Notes under the pieces: generated by a model
What the model was told of the DNA's origin: nothing
What the model saw: only the letters and a program-made list of their open reading frames with translations
The model's database searches: none
Made by a program: the position numbers and the translations under genes
Assembly: GCA_016205145.1 (NCBI GenBank)
Contig: JACQJH010000002.1
Span: 570,001-602,000, forward strand
Reading direction: 5' to 3'
Source: Candidatus Iainarchaeum sp.
GTDB taxonomy: Archaea; Iainarchaeota; Iainarchaeia; Iainarchaeales; JACQJH01
DNA: 32,000 bases
Shown: positions 10,834 through 31,685 of the stretch, one piece after another
Layout: each line of letters opens with the position of its first letter
How positions within the stretch are numbered: position 1 is the stretch's first letter

Positions 10834-10988
10834 GGGCCTGTAGTCTAACGGACAGGACGGCCGGCTTCGGACCGCTGCCCTTTTCTTTTTCTTCGCAAGA
10901 AAAAGAAAAAGTGCAGGGCGCCCAAAAAGAAAGAAACGGGCAAACGGGAAGAGACCGGCTGATGGGGGTTCGAATCCCTCCGGGCCCG
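10834..10988 (+). tRNA. tRNA-Arg (anticodon TCG) with 83-nt intron at 37/38
   Basis: Acceptor GGGCCTG/CGGGCCC, D stem GTCT/GGAC, anticodon stem GCCGG/CCGGC, loop CTTCGGA, T arm GGGGG-TTCGAAT-CCCTC, discriminator G. Intron is 10871..10953. BHB: central helix CTTC/GAAG flanked by 3-nt bulges GGA and AGA, outer helix CCG/CGG. Confidence 0.85.
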
Positions 10989-11121
10989 CTTTCGCGCGGG
11001 CGAAACGAAACCAAGGCGTCTTGCTTTTGCAAGACGCCGGGTAGGTATAAACATAAGTAGTGTTCCGCGAAGCGCGAACACCACGCACGGGGTTTGCAAG
11101 GGGCGAAAGCCCCTGCGTGCA
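10989..11121 (+). repeat. Hairpin cassette between two copies of the tRNA-Arg 3' end
   Basis: Contains GCCCGC-TTTCGC-GCGGGC (overlapping the tRNA end), gaaaccaagg, GGCGTCTTGC-tttt-GCAAGACGCC, GTGTTC(C)GCG-aag-CGCGAACAC, and ggggtttgcaaggggcgaaagcccctgcgtgc. The module order parallels the elements at 19239-19420 and 28616-28748. Confidence 0.6.
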
Positions 11122-11138
11122 AATCCCTCCGGGCCCGA
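11088..11138 (+). other. tRNA 3'-half-like segment (second copy of aatccctccgggcccg)
   Basis: The 16-mer at 10973-10988 recurs exactly at 11122-11137. Removing the 25-nt hairpin 11095-11119 would give CGGGG-TTCAAAT-CCCTC-CGGGCCC-G, a near-canonical T arm plus acceptor strand. Confidence 0.5.
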
Positions 11139-15470: not shown

Positions 15471-15675
15471 GGCGCTTTTAAGTTTCTTCGGAGGAGAGTG
15501 CGCTTCCCCTGACCGCCGTCATCGCCCGGCGGGTACGTTTTGTGGCATCCGCGCTGTTGCGGGATGCCACGCATGCTTTGCGGGGTTTGCAAGGGGTGCA
15601 ACCCCTGCACTCGCTTTGCTCGCATAGCGCTGCGCGCTGTTGCGCGATGGTTCGACGTGGCCTGAACTACGGCGC
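15471..15675. repeat. 205-nt non-coding block made of GC-rich hairpin modules
   Basis: Contains CCGCCG-tcatcgc-CGGCGG at 15513-15533, the 29-nt hairpin GTGGCATCCGCGCTGTTGCGGGATGCCAC at 15542-15570, ggggtttgcaaggggtgcaacccctgcac, ctcgctttgctc, and cgctgcgcgctgt. Each of these has a counterpart near a tRNA gene elsewhere in the window. Confidence 0.6.
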
Positions 15676-17837: not shown

Positions 17838-18191
17838 TCAGAGTAGTTTCAGGCTCGAAGTGAACCTGTCGATTTCGGAATCCGGAGCCGGGCCGATTGC
17901 AATGCACGTCGCTTCCCCCGCTTCAATCTGCGTCCTTCCCGCATCCTTTATCAGCGCGCACGGCAAAAGCTTTTTCGCGGACTCGAACAGCTCAAGCAGT
18001 TCATTTCTGCTTCCAACTTTGAGCACGACCTTCGCCTGGCCGGAAGCCTTCCACTCCTCGACCCAGCCCGGCTTTTTTGCCGAAGTTTTTTCGACTGCCT
18101 CAAGGCTTGCGTGCGCTACTTGGGCACAAGTTTTCCCGACACCAAGTTTCAAATCTTTTCTTACAACAATTGCCTGTTTATATTCAGTCAA
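17838..18191 (-). CDS. pth2: Archaeal-type peptidyl-tRNA hydrolase (Pth2)
   Basis: 117 aa (KQAIVVRKDLKLGVGKTCAQVAHASL...DAGRTQIEAGEATCIAIGP). The TTG start at 18191 lies inside the 3' end of the upstream endonuclease gene. Confidence 0.9.
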   Translation of the reverse strand: MTEYKQAIVVRKDLKLGVGKTCAQVAHASLEAVEKTSAKKPGWVEEWKASGQAKVVLKVGSRNELLELFESAKKLLPCALIKDAGRTQIEAGEATCIAIGPAPDSEIDRFTSSLKLL

Positions 18192-19110
18192 TTTTTTCGC
18201 CCCTTTTTCTTAAATGGTCTTTGAACCGCAAATATTTCCTATCTAAACATAAGCCATTACAATTTTTATACATCCATCTGCAAAGAATGCGTGCATTATC
18301 ACCGTAAAATTCAATTTGCCACGTTCTGTCTGACGACATTTTCACATTACTTGTTCTTATTTTAATAATTTTAACCATTGTTTCCTTTAAATCTTTAATA
18401 AATTTTTCATTGCCAACAATCTTTATTTTGATTGTGTTTGGTTGGTTGAAATGAATACTTCCGTCCCCATCAAAATAACCTCTTACAAAATTAGCGAGGT
18501 ATTTTTGGGGAATTTTTGGCAGCCTTATTTTTTTTGCTTTTTTTGGCCCACACCCAAGAGCTATTAAATCGGAACACATTTTTTTGCTATGCACTGAGAA
18601 GCTCAGGTAATCTCCGTGAATTTTTATTCCATGGTTACTTTTTAGGGCTTTTTTAATTTTTTCCACGATTTTTAAGTCTTTTTTATTTAGGTGCAGGCGA
18701 AATGTTCTTTTGTCAGCGGTGACATTTCCATCGCTAAACATCCAACCCAAAACATATGCAGATTCGCGAGTCCAGACGGAAAAGAAACTTTCGTCGACTT
18801 TGTTATATCTTTTTCTAATTGGCCTCGATATTCTCAATTTGTGTGCTTTATGATACACTGAAGATTTGGTTCTTCTAGGAAATAATATGTGTATGTTGTT
18901 TTTTCCGGCGTAGTGTTCCTTCAGCATCTGAAGTTCTTTTTGTGCCCAGAAAAGACGGGGCGTTGTCAACCCAAATGCATGGAGCTTTCGCTGAATTGTG
19001 GTTTTGCTCACATTATTTTCTTTCGCTATTTCCAAGTAATTCTTGTGTTTAAGCTGCTCTTCCAAATATTCTTTTGAATTATAAAATTTCACAATAAGAT
19101 ACTGTGTCAA
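18184..19110 (-). CDS. Free-standing LAGLIDADG homing endonuclease with N-terminal HTH region
   Basis: Two LAGLIDADG motifs (YVLGWMFSDGNV and FVRGYFDGDGSI). N-terminal HTH-like YLEIAKENNVSKTTIQRKLHAFGL. Lys/Ile/Asn-rich composition. Confidence 0.85.
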   Translation of the reverse strand: MTQYLIVKFYNSKEYLEEQLKHKNYLEIAKENNVSKTTIQRKLHAFGLTTPRLFWAQKELQMLKEHYAGKNNIHILFPRRTKSSVYHKAHKLRISRPIRKRYNKVDESFFSVWTRESAYVLGWMFSDGNVTADKRTFRLHLNKKDLKIVEKIKKALKSNHGIKIHGDYLSFSVHSKKMCSDLIALGCGPKKAKKIRLPKIPQKYLANFVRGYFDGDGSIHFNQPNTIKIKIVGNEKFIKDLKETMVKIIKIRTSNVKMSSDRTWQIEFYGDNARILCRWMYKNCNGLCLDRKYLRFKDHLRKRGEKID

Positions 19111-19238
19111 TCAGTTTAAACTATGGTATAATCTTTCCTTTACCCAAAATTGAAGCCCGGGATAATAATGTCTAAGCCGCAGTTTAAAAACCTGCATTTG
19201 TGCATGGCGGAATCGTCAAACACGAAAAAAGAATGAGA
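18184..19238 (-). mobile_element. AT-rich island carrying the homing endonuclease
   Basis: Hand counts of five 60-nt lines inside give 18-47% G+C (about one third on average), against more than 50% in flanking lines. The island is bounded by pth2 and by the hairpin element starting at 19239. Confidence 0.5.
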
Positions 19239-19420
19239 TTACTCGGCCTTTCACAACAGTGATGCCCCAGAATCCAAAGATTCTGGGCACGTCGCAAAAT
19301 CCAAGATTTTGCAACGAAGGCCTTAGTTTCGGACCCGGCGTTGCGAGCAACGCGAGCCAGCGGCACTTTACGTGCCGCGCGCACCAGACGGGCGTGACGT
19401 CTCGGCGGACGAAACCGCCG
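19239..19420 (-). repeat. Composite hairpin element (longest copy of the family)
   Basis: Read on the minus strand: CGGCGG-TTTCGT-CCGCCG, agacgtcacgcccgtct, CGGCAC-gtaaa-GTGCCG, GCGTTGC-tc-GCAACGC, then an 88-nt two-hairpin module (19248-19335), then gccgagtaa. Confidence 0.7.
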
Positions 19421-19422
19421 GC

Positions 19423-19893
19423 TTAAGCCACGTTCGGCTGCGCTTCGGCTTCGGTTGACAGCTGCTGGATTACCGGCCGCATGATTTCTGAATCGTCTTC
19501 CGCGGCAGGCTGGTCTGAAGCCTGTTCTGATTCGGCTTCAGCCGGTTCCGGCTGCTCGAAGCCTGGCTGTACGCCTTTCAGGCGCAAAGTCTTTGTGATG
19601 CCATTCGAACCCCACAAATAAGTGAAAGAAGTGCCCTCGTTTTTTGTTATCCAAACGCGCCTGTTGCCCGGATGTTCGTGGCCTTTCAAAGTCAGAAGGT
19701 TGCTGAATTCAACCAGCGCCTTTGAATCGTCAAGCTTTACAAGAGTGAAAACTGACGGCGACCCGTCTACTCCCGGCAAAAGTTCGCCGAAAGCCTTGCC
19801 CTGCTCGACTTCGACCTCGTTCTCGTCAACCTTCTTGTCGAAAGGCGGGCTCCACCTGCTCTGCACGTTCCTAAGCTCAAAAATCGCTTTCAT
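19423..19893 (-). CDS. Hypothetical protein with beta-rich N-domain and acidic disordered C-terminal tail
   Basis: 156 aa with C-terminus EQPEPAEAESEQASDQPAAEDDSEIM. No motif recognised. Divergent from nurA. Confidence 0.55.
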   Translation of the reverse strand: MKAIFELRNVQSRWSPPFDKKVDENEVEVEQGKAFGELLPGVDGSPSVFTLVKLDDSKALVEFSNLLTLKGHEHPGNRRVWITKNEGTSFTYLWGSNGITKTLRLKGVQPGFEQPEPAEAESEQASDQPAAEDDSEIMRPVIQQLSTEAEAQPNVA

Positions 19894-22979: not shown

Positions 22980-22984
22980 AAAAA

Positions 22985-23084
22985 AAGAGTAAGCTTACTC
23001 GGCGTTGCGAGCAACGCGAGCCAGCGGCACTTTACGTGCCGCACGCACTAGACGGGCGTGACGTCTCGGCGGACGAAACCGCCG
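22985..23084 (-). repeat. Hairpin element, short copy (lacks the two-hairpin module)
   Basis: 23000-23084 matches 19336-19420 at 83 of 85 positions. It is preceded by the palindrome GAGTAAGCTTACTC. Confidence 0.75.
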
Positions 23085-23086
23085 CC

Positions 23087-23122
23087 GGGAAAACTTTTGA
23101 TAAAAGTTTTATCAAAAGTCAC
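23087..23122. repeat. 36-nt AT-rich palindromic motif downstream of tRNA-Gly(GCC)
   Basis: gggaaaaCTTTTGATAAAAgTTTTATCAAAAGtcac. Its reverse complement recurs at 30833-30868 with 35 of 36 identical. Confidence 0.75.
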
Positions 23123-23187
23123 CCGGCCGGCAGAGGGGCTGAGCCTTGCGAAGCCCCTCAACGTCGCACCAACCGGGCGATGACGGT

Positions 23188-23345
23188 TGCGACCACCGGG
23201 AGTCGAACCCGGACCTGAACCTGATTGCAGCCCTGCGCCTCCAAAAAAGAAAATTTTTTTCTTTTGTGGGAAAACACCTTTTTCTTTTTCAAAAAAGAAA
23301 AAGGGCCCTGGCAAGGTCCAATCCTAACCGCTAGACCATGGTCGC
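23188..23345 (-). tRNA. tRNA-Gly (anticodon GCC) with 86-nt intron at 37/38
   Basis: Acceptor GCGACCA/TGGTCGC, D stem GTCT/GGAT, anticodon stem GGACC/GGTTC, spliced loop TTGCCAA, T arm CCGGG-TTCGACT-CCCGG, discriminator A. Intron is 23223..23308. BHB: central helix TTGC/GCAA, bulges CAG and TCA, outer helix GGCCC/GGGCT. Confidence 0.8.
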
Positions 23346-28542: not shown

Positions 28543-28615
28543 GGGCCCGTGGTCCAGCGGTTACGACGACGCCTTTACAAGGCGTAAGTCGGCGGTTCGA
28601 TCCCGCCCGGGCCCA
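28543..28615 (+). tRNA. tRNA-Val (anticodon TAC), intron-less
   Basis: Acceptor GGGCCCG/CGGGCCC, anticodon stem ACGCC/GGCGT, loop TTTACAA, T arm GGCGG-TTCGATC-CCGCC, discriminator A. No encoded CCA. Confidence 0.9.
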
Positions 28616-28748
28616 AGCAGCCGATTTCGTCCGCAGCCGTCACGTCCGGCGGGTACGAACCAAGGCTTATCATGGCAAAATCGCGATTTTGCCATGTGCC
28701 CGGAATCTTGGGATTCCGGTGCATGCTGCTGCAATAAGCCGAGTAAGC
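28616..28748 (+). repeat. Hairpin element directly abutting the tRNA-Val 3' end
   Basis: ccgatttcgtccgc, ccgtcacgtccggcgggtacg, then gaaccaagg, hairpin CATGGCAAAATC/GATTTTGCCATG (28671-28696), hairpin TGCCCGGAATC/GATTCCGG(T)GCA (28697-28723), and gccgagtaagc. Colinear with the minus strand of 19239-19420. Confidence 0.7.
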
Positions 28749-30588: not shown

Positions 30589-30632
30589 CAGAACCTACAC
30601 CGGCCGGAAAGCGTTCCGAGCGAAGCGAGGCA

Positions 30633-30686
30633 GCCCGATGAAGCGAAGCGAATCGGGCGTCGGACTCGGCGGACGAAATCGCCGAG
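30633..30686 (+). repeat. Two GC hairpins forming the 5' flank of tRNA-Gly(TCC)
   Basis: GCCCGAT-gaagcgaagcga-ATCGGGC at 30633-30658 and CTCGGCG-gacgaaat-CGCCGAG at 30665-30686. The second is the reverse-orientation version of the TTTCGT-loop hairpin, and its last base is tRNA position 1. Confidence 0.65.
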
Positions 30687-30796
30687 CGCCTGTAGCGTAG
30701 TGGTAGCGTTCGACCCTTCCAAAACTTTTTTAGAAAAAAAGTTTGCAAAAAAGTCGAGGTGAGGTCGCGGCCCGGGTTCGACTCCCGGCGGGCGCA
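30686..30796 (+). tRNA. tRNA-Gly (anticodon TCC) with 40-nt intron at 37/38
   Basis: Acceptor GCGCCTG/CGGGCGC, D stem GCGT/GCGT (wobbles), anticodon stem CGACC/GGTCG, spliced loop CTTCCAA, T arm CCGGG-TTCGACT-CCCGG, discriminator A. Intron is 30722..30761, with central helix CTTC/GAGG and 3' bulge TGA. The 5' side is less regular, so this is a relaxed BHB. Confidence 0.8.
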
Positions 30797-30832: not shown

Positions 30833-30868
30833 GTGAATTTTGATAAAACTTTTATCAAAAGTTTTCCC
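30833..30868. repeat. 36-nt AT-rich palindromic motif downstream of tRNA-Gly(TCC)
   Basis: gtgaaTTTTGATAAAAcTTTTATCAAAAgttttccc, the reverse complement of 23087-23122 at 35 of 36 positions. It may double as the TATA region for rnp4 (ATG 30897). Confidence 0.75.
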
Positions 30869-30896
30869 GACGGGCGCAACTAAAAAATTGGTTCTG

Positions 30897-31505: not shown

Positions 31506-31511
31506 GCATAA

Positions 31512-31566
31512 GTGGTGCCGCAACAGCGGCACCACCAAGGGGGCGTGCGAGGGGCGTCAGCCCTGC
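31512..31566 (+). repeat. Hairpin module after the yhbY stop
   Basis: GTGGTGCCGC-aaca-GCGGCACCAC followed by caagggggcgtgcgaggggcgtcagccctgc. This is the same design (CGC-AACA-GCG apex, then a CAAGGGG...CCCTGC unit) as 15542-15610 on the opposite strand. Confidence 0.55.
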
Positions 31567-31685
31567 TAACAAAGCTTTTTAAAGGTTTTATCCGAGAGAA
31601 ACGTATAATCGGCTTCTAATTTTGGAAGCTTCGGGCAATGCCCGTAAAGCAAATGCTTCGAAAGAAGCGAAAATGGTGATGATTT

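Follow-up and report, generated by a model that had tools for sequence, protein, structure and literature searches.

Which kind of element can account for a short hairpin-rich segment that is present in one of two nearly identical sequences of the same archaeal genome and missing from the other? The question is raised by nucleotides 19248–19335 of the window, the whole 32,000-nt stretch of Candidatus Iainarchaeum sp. DNA analysed here, where 88 nt are carried by a multi-hairpin element at 19.3 kb (c19) and are missing from its paralogue at 23.0 kb (c23). DPANN archaea, whose genomes are very small, are regarded as poor in repetitive or selfish DNA. We consider it probable, on balance, that this DPANN (Iainarchaeota/Diapherotrites-like) archaeon has a small palindromic DNA element, dispersed and non-autonomous, of which the 88 nt are one copy, and which is similar in kind to repetitive extragenic palindromic (REP) sequences and bacterial interspersed mosaic elements (BIMEs), or to the Rickettsia palindromic elements (RPEs).

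Comparison of c19 with c23 shows exactly 88 extra nucleotides in c19 (19248–19335), lying between matching flanks after ttactcggc (19239–19247) and before cggcgttgcg on the plus strand; the empty counterpart at 23.0 kb is the uninterrupted cttactcggcgttgcg. The host elements (19333–19420 and 22997–23084) are 97% identical across 88 nt, and the other flank is also alike, consisting of GCCGAGTAA and a T-run (19225–19250 and 22981–23006, 85%). CGGC, or GCCG on the transcribed strand, borders the segment on either side, such that the exact junction is ambiguous within 4 nt. An earlier note on this DNA had described an 88-nt insert with CGGC on both sides, and this comparison bears it out.

All parts of the segment are read on the minus strand, in the order linker GGTCCGAAACTAAGG, closing stem P1, hairpins H1, H2 and H3, and the 3′ arm of P1. 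H1 (19290–19316) is CGUUGCAAAAUC-UUG-GAUUUUGCGACG, with 12 bp including one U-G, and H2 (19263–19289) is UGCCCAGAAUC-UUUG-GAUUCUG(G)GGCA, with 11 bp and one bulged base in the 3′ arm. The 5′ arm of P1 is at 19317–19322, and H3 (UCAC-UGUU-GUGA) together with the P1 3′ arm (AAGGCC) occupies 19245–19262. A covariance model (CM), R1, matches 19237–19336 with 104 bits. The host element of c19 (19333–19420, minus strand) opens with the A hairpin CGGCGGUUUCGUCCGCCG and starts 3 nt past the stop codon of a 156-aa gene (19423–19893), and c19 ends in a T-run. The paralogous element of c23 (22981–23084, minus strand) lies in the trailer of an intron-containing tRNA gene and contains the empty site, GCAACGCCG followed by AGTAAG (∼22999–23003), with a T-run at its end.

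We note that the two 88-nt host elements form direct repeats flanking the 156-aa gene, NurA and HerA. Both ends of Logan contig L001 lie within these repeats, and the window genes are found only on short Logan contigs that break there; evidently, assemblies break at these repeats.

A homologue of the segment, c28, is present elsewhere in the window. Positions 28647–28746 align with 19340–19239 in the opposite genomic orientation (76.7% identity over 103 columns, E 5.6e-15), and the flanks are unrelated. The full module (28651–28748, plus strand; 106 bits with CM R1) lies in the trailer of tRNA-Val (28543–28615), directly 3′ of that gene and with no T-run ahead of it, and comprises P1 (28664–28670 with 28734–28740), H1 (28671–28696), H2 (28697–28723) and H3 (28724–28733). 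A homologue behind tRNA-Val in opposite orientation had been proposed, and its H1 and H2 do fold as claimed. The common fold of c19 and c28 consists of the closing stem P1, a 12-bp H1, an 11-bp H2 with one bulge in its 3′ arm, and a 3–4-bp H3; relative to shuffles, folding of the whole element gives z = -4.9 for c19 and z = -3.1 for c28.

A metagenome scan anchored on H1 and the junction returned 51 loci, mostly chance matches in coding DNA, including three distinct clear homologues: L199 (93.5% identity to c28), L192 (same sequence as L195; 88% identity to c19) and L160 (same sequence as L207). The scan pattern fixed 21 bases of H1 and the junction, and that these bases do not vary in the three metagenome copies is in part a consequence of the search. 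Their contigs have a window-like composition of ∼51% G+C, and the contigs with the three copies add up to ∼12 kb of related sequence; by blastn and tblastx, the loci have nothing in common with the window or with one another except the module. We therefore treat the GC-rich family as five distinct copies (c19, c28, L199, L192 and L160), dispersed to non-orthologous sites, and the three copies at unrelated loci rule out that the similarity is confined to a segmental duplication of two loci.

Other searches returned nothing of the kind. The flank-anchored pattern GGGTNCGAAN{2,3}AAGGCN{55,85}GCCGAGTAA has 0 matches in genome contigs and 0 in metagenome contigs. The A-hairpin 20-mer gives 120 single matches in genome contigs, and among the matches listed almost all are bacterial and one is from a haloarchaeon; the A-hairpin 18-mer gives chance matches in viral contigs. 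The H1 and junction pattern has 0 matches in viral contigs, and the phage and plasmid collections hold no match to the elements. A protein query made by concatenating the translations of c19 and c28 in six frames, which would catch spurious open reading frames (ORFs) over other copies of the GC-rich family, found no match. BLAST of all window elements against relatives at ∼69% HerA identity gave nothing convincing, and a palindrome match on L154 was dropped as merely AT-rich sequence. In Rfam, tRNAs are the sole window matches both at gathering score and at E≤1, and no match covers the elements in the metagenome loci.

The pairing is conserved across the family. In the five-copy alignment, 95.7% of cells are in standard pairs, compared with 89.6 ± 1.4 in shuffles, and 7 of 33 pairs are changed on both sides (12 cells). 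The covariation score was reached by 0 of 500 shuffles, and a control with partners slid by 1–3 columns gave no more than two two-sided pairs. RNAalifold run without a supplied structure recovered P1, H1 and H2 with 7 compensated pairs. The compensatory changes that the earlier note had claimed are present, A-U to G-C in H2, and G-C to A-U and U-G to G-C at the base of H1; a further one that it did not name, C-G to U-A, is in the closing stem P1.

The conserved core is GCAAAAUC-loop-GAUUUUGC for H1 and UGCCCRGAAUC-loop-GAUUCYG-N-GGCA for H2. The apical 8 bp of H1 and the apical 5–8 bp of H2 are invariant in the five copies, and the basal pairs covary. Loops vary in both hairpins (UUG, GC, CGC and UCG in H1; UUUG, UUGG and UUCG in H2), and none of the five copies is without the bulge in the 3′ arm of H2, which keeps its position but not its base (G, U, G, C and A). 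The two hairpins are each 26–28 nt, with a one-base bulge in H2, and are thus imperfect palindromes of 20–40 nt with a conserved stem, as REPs are. Sense and antisense strands fold about equally well, c19 alone differing, by 5 kcal/mol; in c19 and L192, a U-G pair at the H1 base gives the sense strand a slight advantage.

The unit that comes and goes is smaller than 88 nt. The H1-H2 dyad (∼54–55 nt) is found within the loops of two unrelated host hairpins, each of which is also seen empty. The first host is part of what we call a frame: a hairpin whose loop is UUUCGN lies upstream, and after it come the linker CGAAACYAAGG and another hairpin, which is followed by G(A/G)GUA(A/G)G. Alignment of the frames of c28, L199 and L192 shows them to be alike with window 11001–11046 and with L160 3094–3139; the first three carry ∼55 extra nucleotides (H1-H2) within the frame hairpin, and the latter two are without them. 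The empty frame at 11 kb (c11; 11001–11046, plus strand) consists of CGAAACCAAGG, the hairpin GGCGUCUUGC-UUUU-GCAAGACGCC and GGGUAGG, and is matched by CM R1 at 16.7 bits with the interior deleted, its hairpin being homologous to the one that hosts the dyad in c28, L199 and L192. The earlier note had taken 11003–11082 for a third version of the module; the linker, one hairpin and the G(G/A)GTAGG tail are indeed there, but the dyad is absent and the locus is an empty host frame, and the second hairpin there (11060–11082) is a different module, common to 31507–31573.

The second host is in L160, where the dyad is in a different hairpin, GAGGGUUU..AAACCCUC. Its window homologue, GAGGGGCU..AGCCCCUC (23133–23159, minus strand), lies in the trailer of the minus-strand tRNA and is empty. 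There are thus three comparisons of filled with empty sites, namely c19 with c23, c28, L199 and L192 with the c11 and L160-A frames, and the L160 host hairpin with 23133–23159. Because the dyad is both present and absent in two unrelated hairpin loops, it is the smallest unit seen both ways; the notion of an insertable module stands with these filled and empty sites, although its smallest form is the dyad of ∼54 nt and not the 88 nt originally proposed. In c19 the parts are nested, with the dyad in the loop of the frame hairpin, CGAAACYAAGG before the frame and GAGUAAG after it, and the 88-nt difference from c23 is a whole frame plus dyad. As the 88 nt are flanked by GCCG repeats, a deletion between the repeats could equally give this difference, and insertion and slippage deletion are equally possible for it. 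P1 (6–7 bp) might be taken for the frame's terminal inverted repeats.

We also observe that the UUUCGN loop upstream of every frame is complementary over 4–7 nt to the CGAAAC linker in all six frames (19403–19420 with 19321–19331, 28620–28663, and 10985–11016 in the window; L192, L199 and L160). This complementarity allows an alternative helix or a pseudoknot, and the last loop base covaries with the linker in three of the six copies.

The genomic contexts of the module are heterogeneous. It lies in a 3′ untranslated region (UTR) in c19, in the tRNA-Val trailer in c28, in a 335-nt spacer between two tRNA-Pro genes in L160, between divergently oriented genes in L192, where the position of a TATA-like box close by best suits the opposite gene, and against the end of a convergent gene in L199. 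For L192 and L199 sense transcription is not obvious. The window itself encodes Rad50, NurA, HerA, a DnaG-type primase, the CCA-adding enzyme, aRF1 and Rpp21 of a DPANN archaeon, and its best HerA matches (65–70% identity) are to 'Candidatus Diapherotrites/Iainarchaeum' metagenome-assembled genomes, with which it has gene order in common. Among five relatives with syntenic loci, the orthologous tRNA-Arg(TCG) trailers of four (L209, L210, L211 and L212) are without modules. The sole exception is L156, which has an A-like hairpin and then a two-hairpin pair, ATGGCAUAC-GAA-GUAUGCCAU and GUGC..GCAC, with the base of c28 H1 and the GUGC junction in common. Orthologous trailers mostly lacking them, the modules are lineage-specific additions and not conserved parts of tRNA transcripts. 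Perfect hairpins of at least 8 bp are concentrated in tRNA introns, in tRNA flanks and in the flanks of a few genes, and the frames are set among other hairpin modules in a mosaic with which the tRNA trailers and 3′ UTRs of the window genome are filled.

Seven of the 51 pattern matches (five of them distinct) are on AT-rich contigs of 32–41% G+C, one of which has an archaeal signal recognition particle (SRP) RNA; gene content points to an archaeal host for this family. These contigs carry a 105-nt array of four hairpins, the third and fourth of which correspond to H1 and H2. Copies are 87–98% identical across contigs, and L168 has a compensatory change from AUCC/GGAU to AUGC/GCAU. The copy on L213 was reached by peptide search and not by the DNA pattern; its last hairpin, GUGCCCAGAAAAUCUUUGAUUUUCUCGGGCA, matches c19 H2 at 26 of 32 aligned columns; two base pairs are added on both arms, and a single loop base and the base of the bulge are different. 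We take this likeness as homology. Where MAFFT misplaced gaps, for H2 across the two families and for the proC pair described below, we read the junctions by eye.

The 105-nt element lies in frame in seven or more protein families that are unrelated to each other, with proC, an M17 aminopeptidase, a presenilin-like protease, NAD kinase, a nucleotidyltransferase, DUF365 and a membrane protein among the hosts, and this is the type of in-frame insertion by which RPEs are recognised. In-frame copies are located at L176 5521–5633 (proC), L167 5338–5447 (M17 aminopeptidase), L213 8292–8396 and L214 291–390, and the proteins compared are P0121–P0132. A search with the encoded peptides found nine proteins, from proC, the membrane protein, the presenilin-like protease, NAD kinase, the nucleotidyltransferase and DUF365, and all of them have ..SKIKDFAVQKIQxFS.. 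or a frame-shifted variant. All coding copies are read antisense to the sense strand of the module and yield a Lys-rich amphipathic peptide, and in one of them the frame is kept open by internal indels. In proC proteins at 83–86% identity (full alignment), P0122 and P0130 have a 35-residue insert and P0131 and P0132 have none; the latter two share a 90%-identity cluster with the insert-bearing P0121 and P0130. At the DNA level, the filled L176 differs from the empty L215 by a 105-nt insert with no obvious target duplication. These filled and empty proC alleles show directly that an element with the same dyad at its core is polymorphic for insertion at the DNA level. The left flanks of the 105-nt copies are T-rich and not identical, as far as few sites can tell.

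A second coding insert is found in the relative L210 (HerA 65% identity), which has a CM R1 match of 29.9 bits (E 6e-6). At L210 16040–16140, three GCAAAANC-type hairpins interrupt a conserved 500-aa protein downstream of HerA, adding ∼33 residues that four orthologues are without. One of the hairpins, CCUUGCAAAACC-AAG-GGUUUUGCGAGG, is nearly c19 H1, with a compensatory change from U-A to C-G at its tip.

Taken with the dispersal of the copies and their nesting in loops, the invariant apical stems with free loops and the fixed position of the bulge fit a selfish palindromic element better than an RNA gene, as do the absence from orthologous sites, the mixed contexts and the relatives that are polymorphic in ORFs. 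The earlier note had offered a functional structured RNA or an element resembling a MITE (miniature inverted-repeat transposable element); a discrete, dispersed unit with maintained pairing is what we find, and of the two options the MITE-like, selfish one fits better than a dedicated RNA. That the window copies have themselves moved is inferred, as would be any direction given to the 88-nt event.

A simple mechanism can be proposed, in which the element would spread at the DNA level and would need its hairpins to form on one strand of a single-stranded nucleic acid. The closest analogy would be recognition of the hairpins by an HUH/Y1 enzyme, as in REP sequences and their associated tyrosine transposases (RAYTs) and in the insertion sequences (ISs) of the IS200/IS605 family, and template switching at hairpins may be an alternative. 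Pairing would then be selected through the element's own propagation via a single-stranded hairpin intermediate. Copies inserted behind a gene or tRNA would be transcribed passively and might incidentally stabilise 3′ ends. Such hairpin-dependent spread would explain the invariant apical 8 bp with free loops and compensatory basal pairs, the extrahelical base of H2 that is fixed in position but not in identity, and the landing of the dyad in hairpin loops without a clear target-site duplication. Resident copies may also have an RNA-level role, such as protecting or processing 3′ ends, which could exist alongside a mobile origin. More tentatively, and with somewhat more doubt than belief, we suggest that the module could be the GC-rich member of an undescribed DPANN hairpin-array superfamily (GCAAAAYC-loop-GRUUUUGC) that moves in a hairpin-dependent manner, inhabits tRNA trailers, hairpin loops and, in frame, ORFs, and would be an archaeal counterpart of RPEs, some copies having been co-opted as tRNA-trailer or 3′-UTR structures.

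Several observations weigh against a mobile palindromic element. Target-site duplications were looked for at the insertions and no clear one was found: the sole direct repeat at the c19 junction is the 4-nt GCCG, and the proC pair shows none clearly either. No transposase, integrase or other mobilising gene (including the PF01797 type) is among the window ORFs, and none was sought elsewhere; the sole mobile-type gene of the window is a free-standing LAGLIDADG ORF (18184–19110, minus strand) beside c19. CM R1 finds no further full copy in the 32-kb window beyond c19 and c28, which makes only two there. Movement is shown directly for the 105-nt relative and not for the GC-rich family itself. Lastly, c19, c28 and L160 are in sense orientation inside a likely transcript, making an RNA role possible, and the slight strand bias from the U-G pair at the base of H1 is expected for RNA, albeit also for single-stranded DNA.

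The LAGLIDADG ORF is in a low-G+C island (18000–19230; 0.38, compared with ∼0.52) that begins just past the c19 T-run and looks like a separate foreign insertion. LAGLIDADG-containing inteins are present in relatives, in HerA (P0006, P0040, P0042 and P0048) and in NifU (L154 3769–5247 and L156 3937–5466); the window HerA is without one.

Among other explanations, the one that deserves most attention, although we regard it as unlikely, is that the module is a functional cis-acting or small-RNA domain whose four-way junction (P1, H1, H2 and H3) is selected as RNA, either as a platform for 3′-end protection or processing in tRNA trailers and 3′ UTRs or as a protein-binding small RNA, with presence and absence reflecting modular evolution of those RNAs. 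In its favour, pairing is conserved with compensatory changes, and c19, c28 and L160 do lie in sense, each behind a gene or tRNA and ahead of the next T-run or tRNA; the U-G pair of c19 and L192 is tolerated on the sense strand only, TATA-like boxes are present ∼30 nt upstream of the linker in L199 and L192, and the UUUCG loop can pair with the CGAAAC linker in six of six frames. Yet no Rfam family matches, the loops are variable while the apical stems are invariant, and there is little to choose between the strands in how well they fold. Nor do the locations suit an RNA: the L192 copy is between divergent genes, and its TATA-like box is most easily understood as a promoter for the opposite gene, the L199 copy lies against a convergent gene's end, orthologous trailers in relatives are without the module, and the same dyad has been carried into coding sequences. 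Three more specific RNA or tRNA-associated candidates were tried and rejected: a tRNA-like cloverleaf, given arms of 11–12 bp and no ARAGORN or Rfam tRNA match; a K-turn, C/D or H/ACA RNA, there being no K-turn and no such boxes; and an integrase att remnant, the shared blocks being too short and common to different tRNAs.

The symmetry could also be kept because H1 and H2 are adjacent palindromic operators in double-stranded DNA, with one dimeric DNA-binding protein reading both half-sites (AAAATC/GATTTT and GAATC/GATTC). This would suit the apical 5–8 bp, which are invariant and alike in H1 and H2, the variable loops as spacers, and the L192 copy between divergent promoters; it is nonetheless improbable, given that the compensatory changes are 9–12 bp from the dyad centre, beyond a normal operator, that a bulge on one side only, kept in position, makes no sense in duplex DNA, and that copies are found behind genes and inside ORFs, where regulation is not expected. 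An RNA-level mobile or intron-like insert, excised by the archaeal splicing endonuclease at a bulge-helix-bulge, comes to mind in a genome rich in tRNA introns, with the element in tRNA precursors and relatives that interrupt ORFs. We hold this to be very improbable: on inspection, the predicted structures of c19 and c28 have a continuous closing stem and no 3-nt bulge, 4-bp helix and 3-nt bulge at the borders, and the ORF inserts are stop-free (105 nt in proC, ∼33 aa in L210), one with internal frame compensation, which argues for translation rather than splicing. As for plain segmental duplication or chance similarity of two window loci, it has in its favour that the 32 kb contain just two full copies and that c19 and c23 are clearly recent paralogues, but c19 and c28 match at E 5.6e-15 despite unrelated flanks, and the three copies in unrelated contexts, with the dyad in a different host hairpin, have already refuted it, leaving it next to no probability.

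We return to the selfish palindromic element and the known systems it can be compared with. REP/BIME/REPIN sequences of Proteobacteria, with their RAYT Y1/HUH enzymes, are alike in being short imperfect palindromes with conserved stems, free loops and a bulge or mismatch in the stem, arranged as dyads or arrays in mosaics with other motifs, mostly behind genes, where they are passively transcribed and keep their hairpin potential. They differ in being known from bacteria only, whereas the present element is archaeal with no RAYT/Y1 gene among the window ORFs. Moreover, the present element has no conserved GTAG-like 5′ tetranucleotide (GUGC precedes H2), its hairpins are in tandem and not inverted, and its relatives enter ORFs in frame, which REPs typically do not. 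RPEs (PMC10969869) are ∼100–150 nt with stable hairpins, and are found between genes and in frame in unrelated protein genes; the 105-nt relative and the L210 insert likewise add an in-frame peptide segment. In contrast to RPEs, there is no sequence relationship, the hosts are archaeal, the window copies are outside ORFs, and the structure is an array of short hairpins and not a single long palindrome.

BOX elements of Streptococcus pneumoniae (boxA-boxB(n)-boxC) share modularity, variable internal hairpin units, intergenic location and a stable RNA when transcribed, although they are bacterial, unrelated in sequence and not nested in hairpin loops. The palindrome-associated transposable elements (PATEs) of Haloquadratum, which are IS200/IS605-derived MITEs, are archaeal and non-autonomous as well. 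PATEs have hairpins near both ends and insert, as single-stranded DNA, beside a short motif without target-site duplication. In the present element the hairpins favour one strand through G-U/G-T pairs; few sites reveal no conserved target tetranucleotide, no parent IS or TnpA was identified, and the present element is far smaller (54–105 nt). The Sulfolobus MITEs SM1–4 differ in their terminal inverted repeats, to which the present element has no clear equivalent. A review of prokaryotic MITEs lists archaeal examples for Sulfolobus, Halobacterium, Haloquadratum and Desulfurococcus only, and treats in-frame palindromic elements as a Rickettsia peculiarity (PMC10969869). Our literature search found no in-frame palindromic elements reported in archaea or DPANN. 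On the best reading of the data, a mobile palindromic element of REP/BIME or RPE type in DPANN archaea is new here.

The surrounding tRNA-flank mosaic contains further hairpin modules. The intron-containing tRNA genes of the window are at 10834–10988, 30686–30796 and ∼23133–23345 (minus strand), the last of which is undetected by ARAGORN and Rfam. The last 15 nt of tRNA-Arg (ATCCCTCCGGGCCCG) recur 149 nt downstream (window 10974–11137), around a 134-nt hairpin-module block that starts with the empty frame, and L160 3061–3205 is laid out in the same way behind tRNA-Pro(TGG), where the repeated sequence is the 3′ end of that tRNA. Each tRNA thus has a repeat of its own, which resembles an att-like scar or a long target duplication. 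The introns of three tRNA genes (10881–10909, 23245–23304 and 30722–30744) have similar polypyrimidine/polypurine hairpins, for instance TTTTCTTTTTCTT-CGC-AAGAAAAAGAAAA, and may thus belong to one intron family. Two different tRNA genes are followed by an AT-rich palindrome of 41 nt, GTGA.TTTTGATAAAACTTTTATCAAAAGTTTTCCCG.CGG (23082–23122 and 30833–30873, 95% match). In the 5′ leader of the tRNA at 30686 (30611–30684), the host-element hairpin is reversed, with the loop ACGAAA, so that modules occur on either strand relative to transcription; this leader also resembles that of tRNA-Pro(GGG) in L160 (TCCGAGCG..GCGAGGCAG). Other hairpin modules are shared between 11052–11123 and 31507–31573 and between 11088–11116 and 15581–15608, with compensatory differences of their own, 15581–15608 being the probable 5′ leader of a gene at ∼15.65 kb and 31507–31573 being intergenic. 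On L156 (17265–17330), the annotated start of a 2-thiouridine desulfurase-like gene crosses a hairpin pair (MAYEVCHVLALLGSHLKGGW...), and comparison with L210 suggests that a later ATG is the true start and that the element creates a spurious N-terminal extension.

If the 88-nt segment is indeed a copy of a mobile palindromic element, this would explain the mosaic, fast-evolving tRNA flanks of these genomes, and the filled and empty sites would serve as strain-level markers. Protein insertions would gain a further source, as would artefacts of gene calling and assembly such as contig breaks and spurious N-terminal extensions. Beyond this, it would point to an undescribed hairpin-directed mobilisation activity in these genomes.

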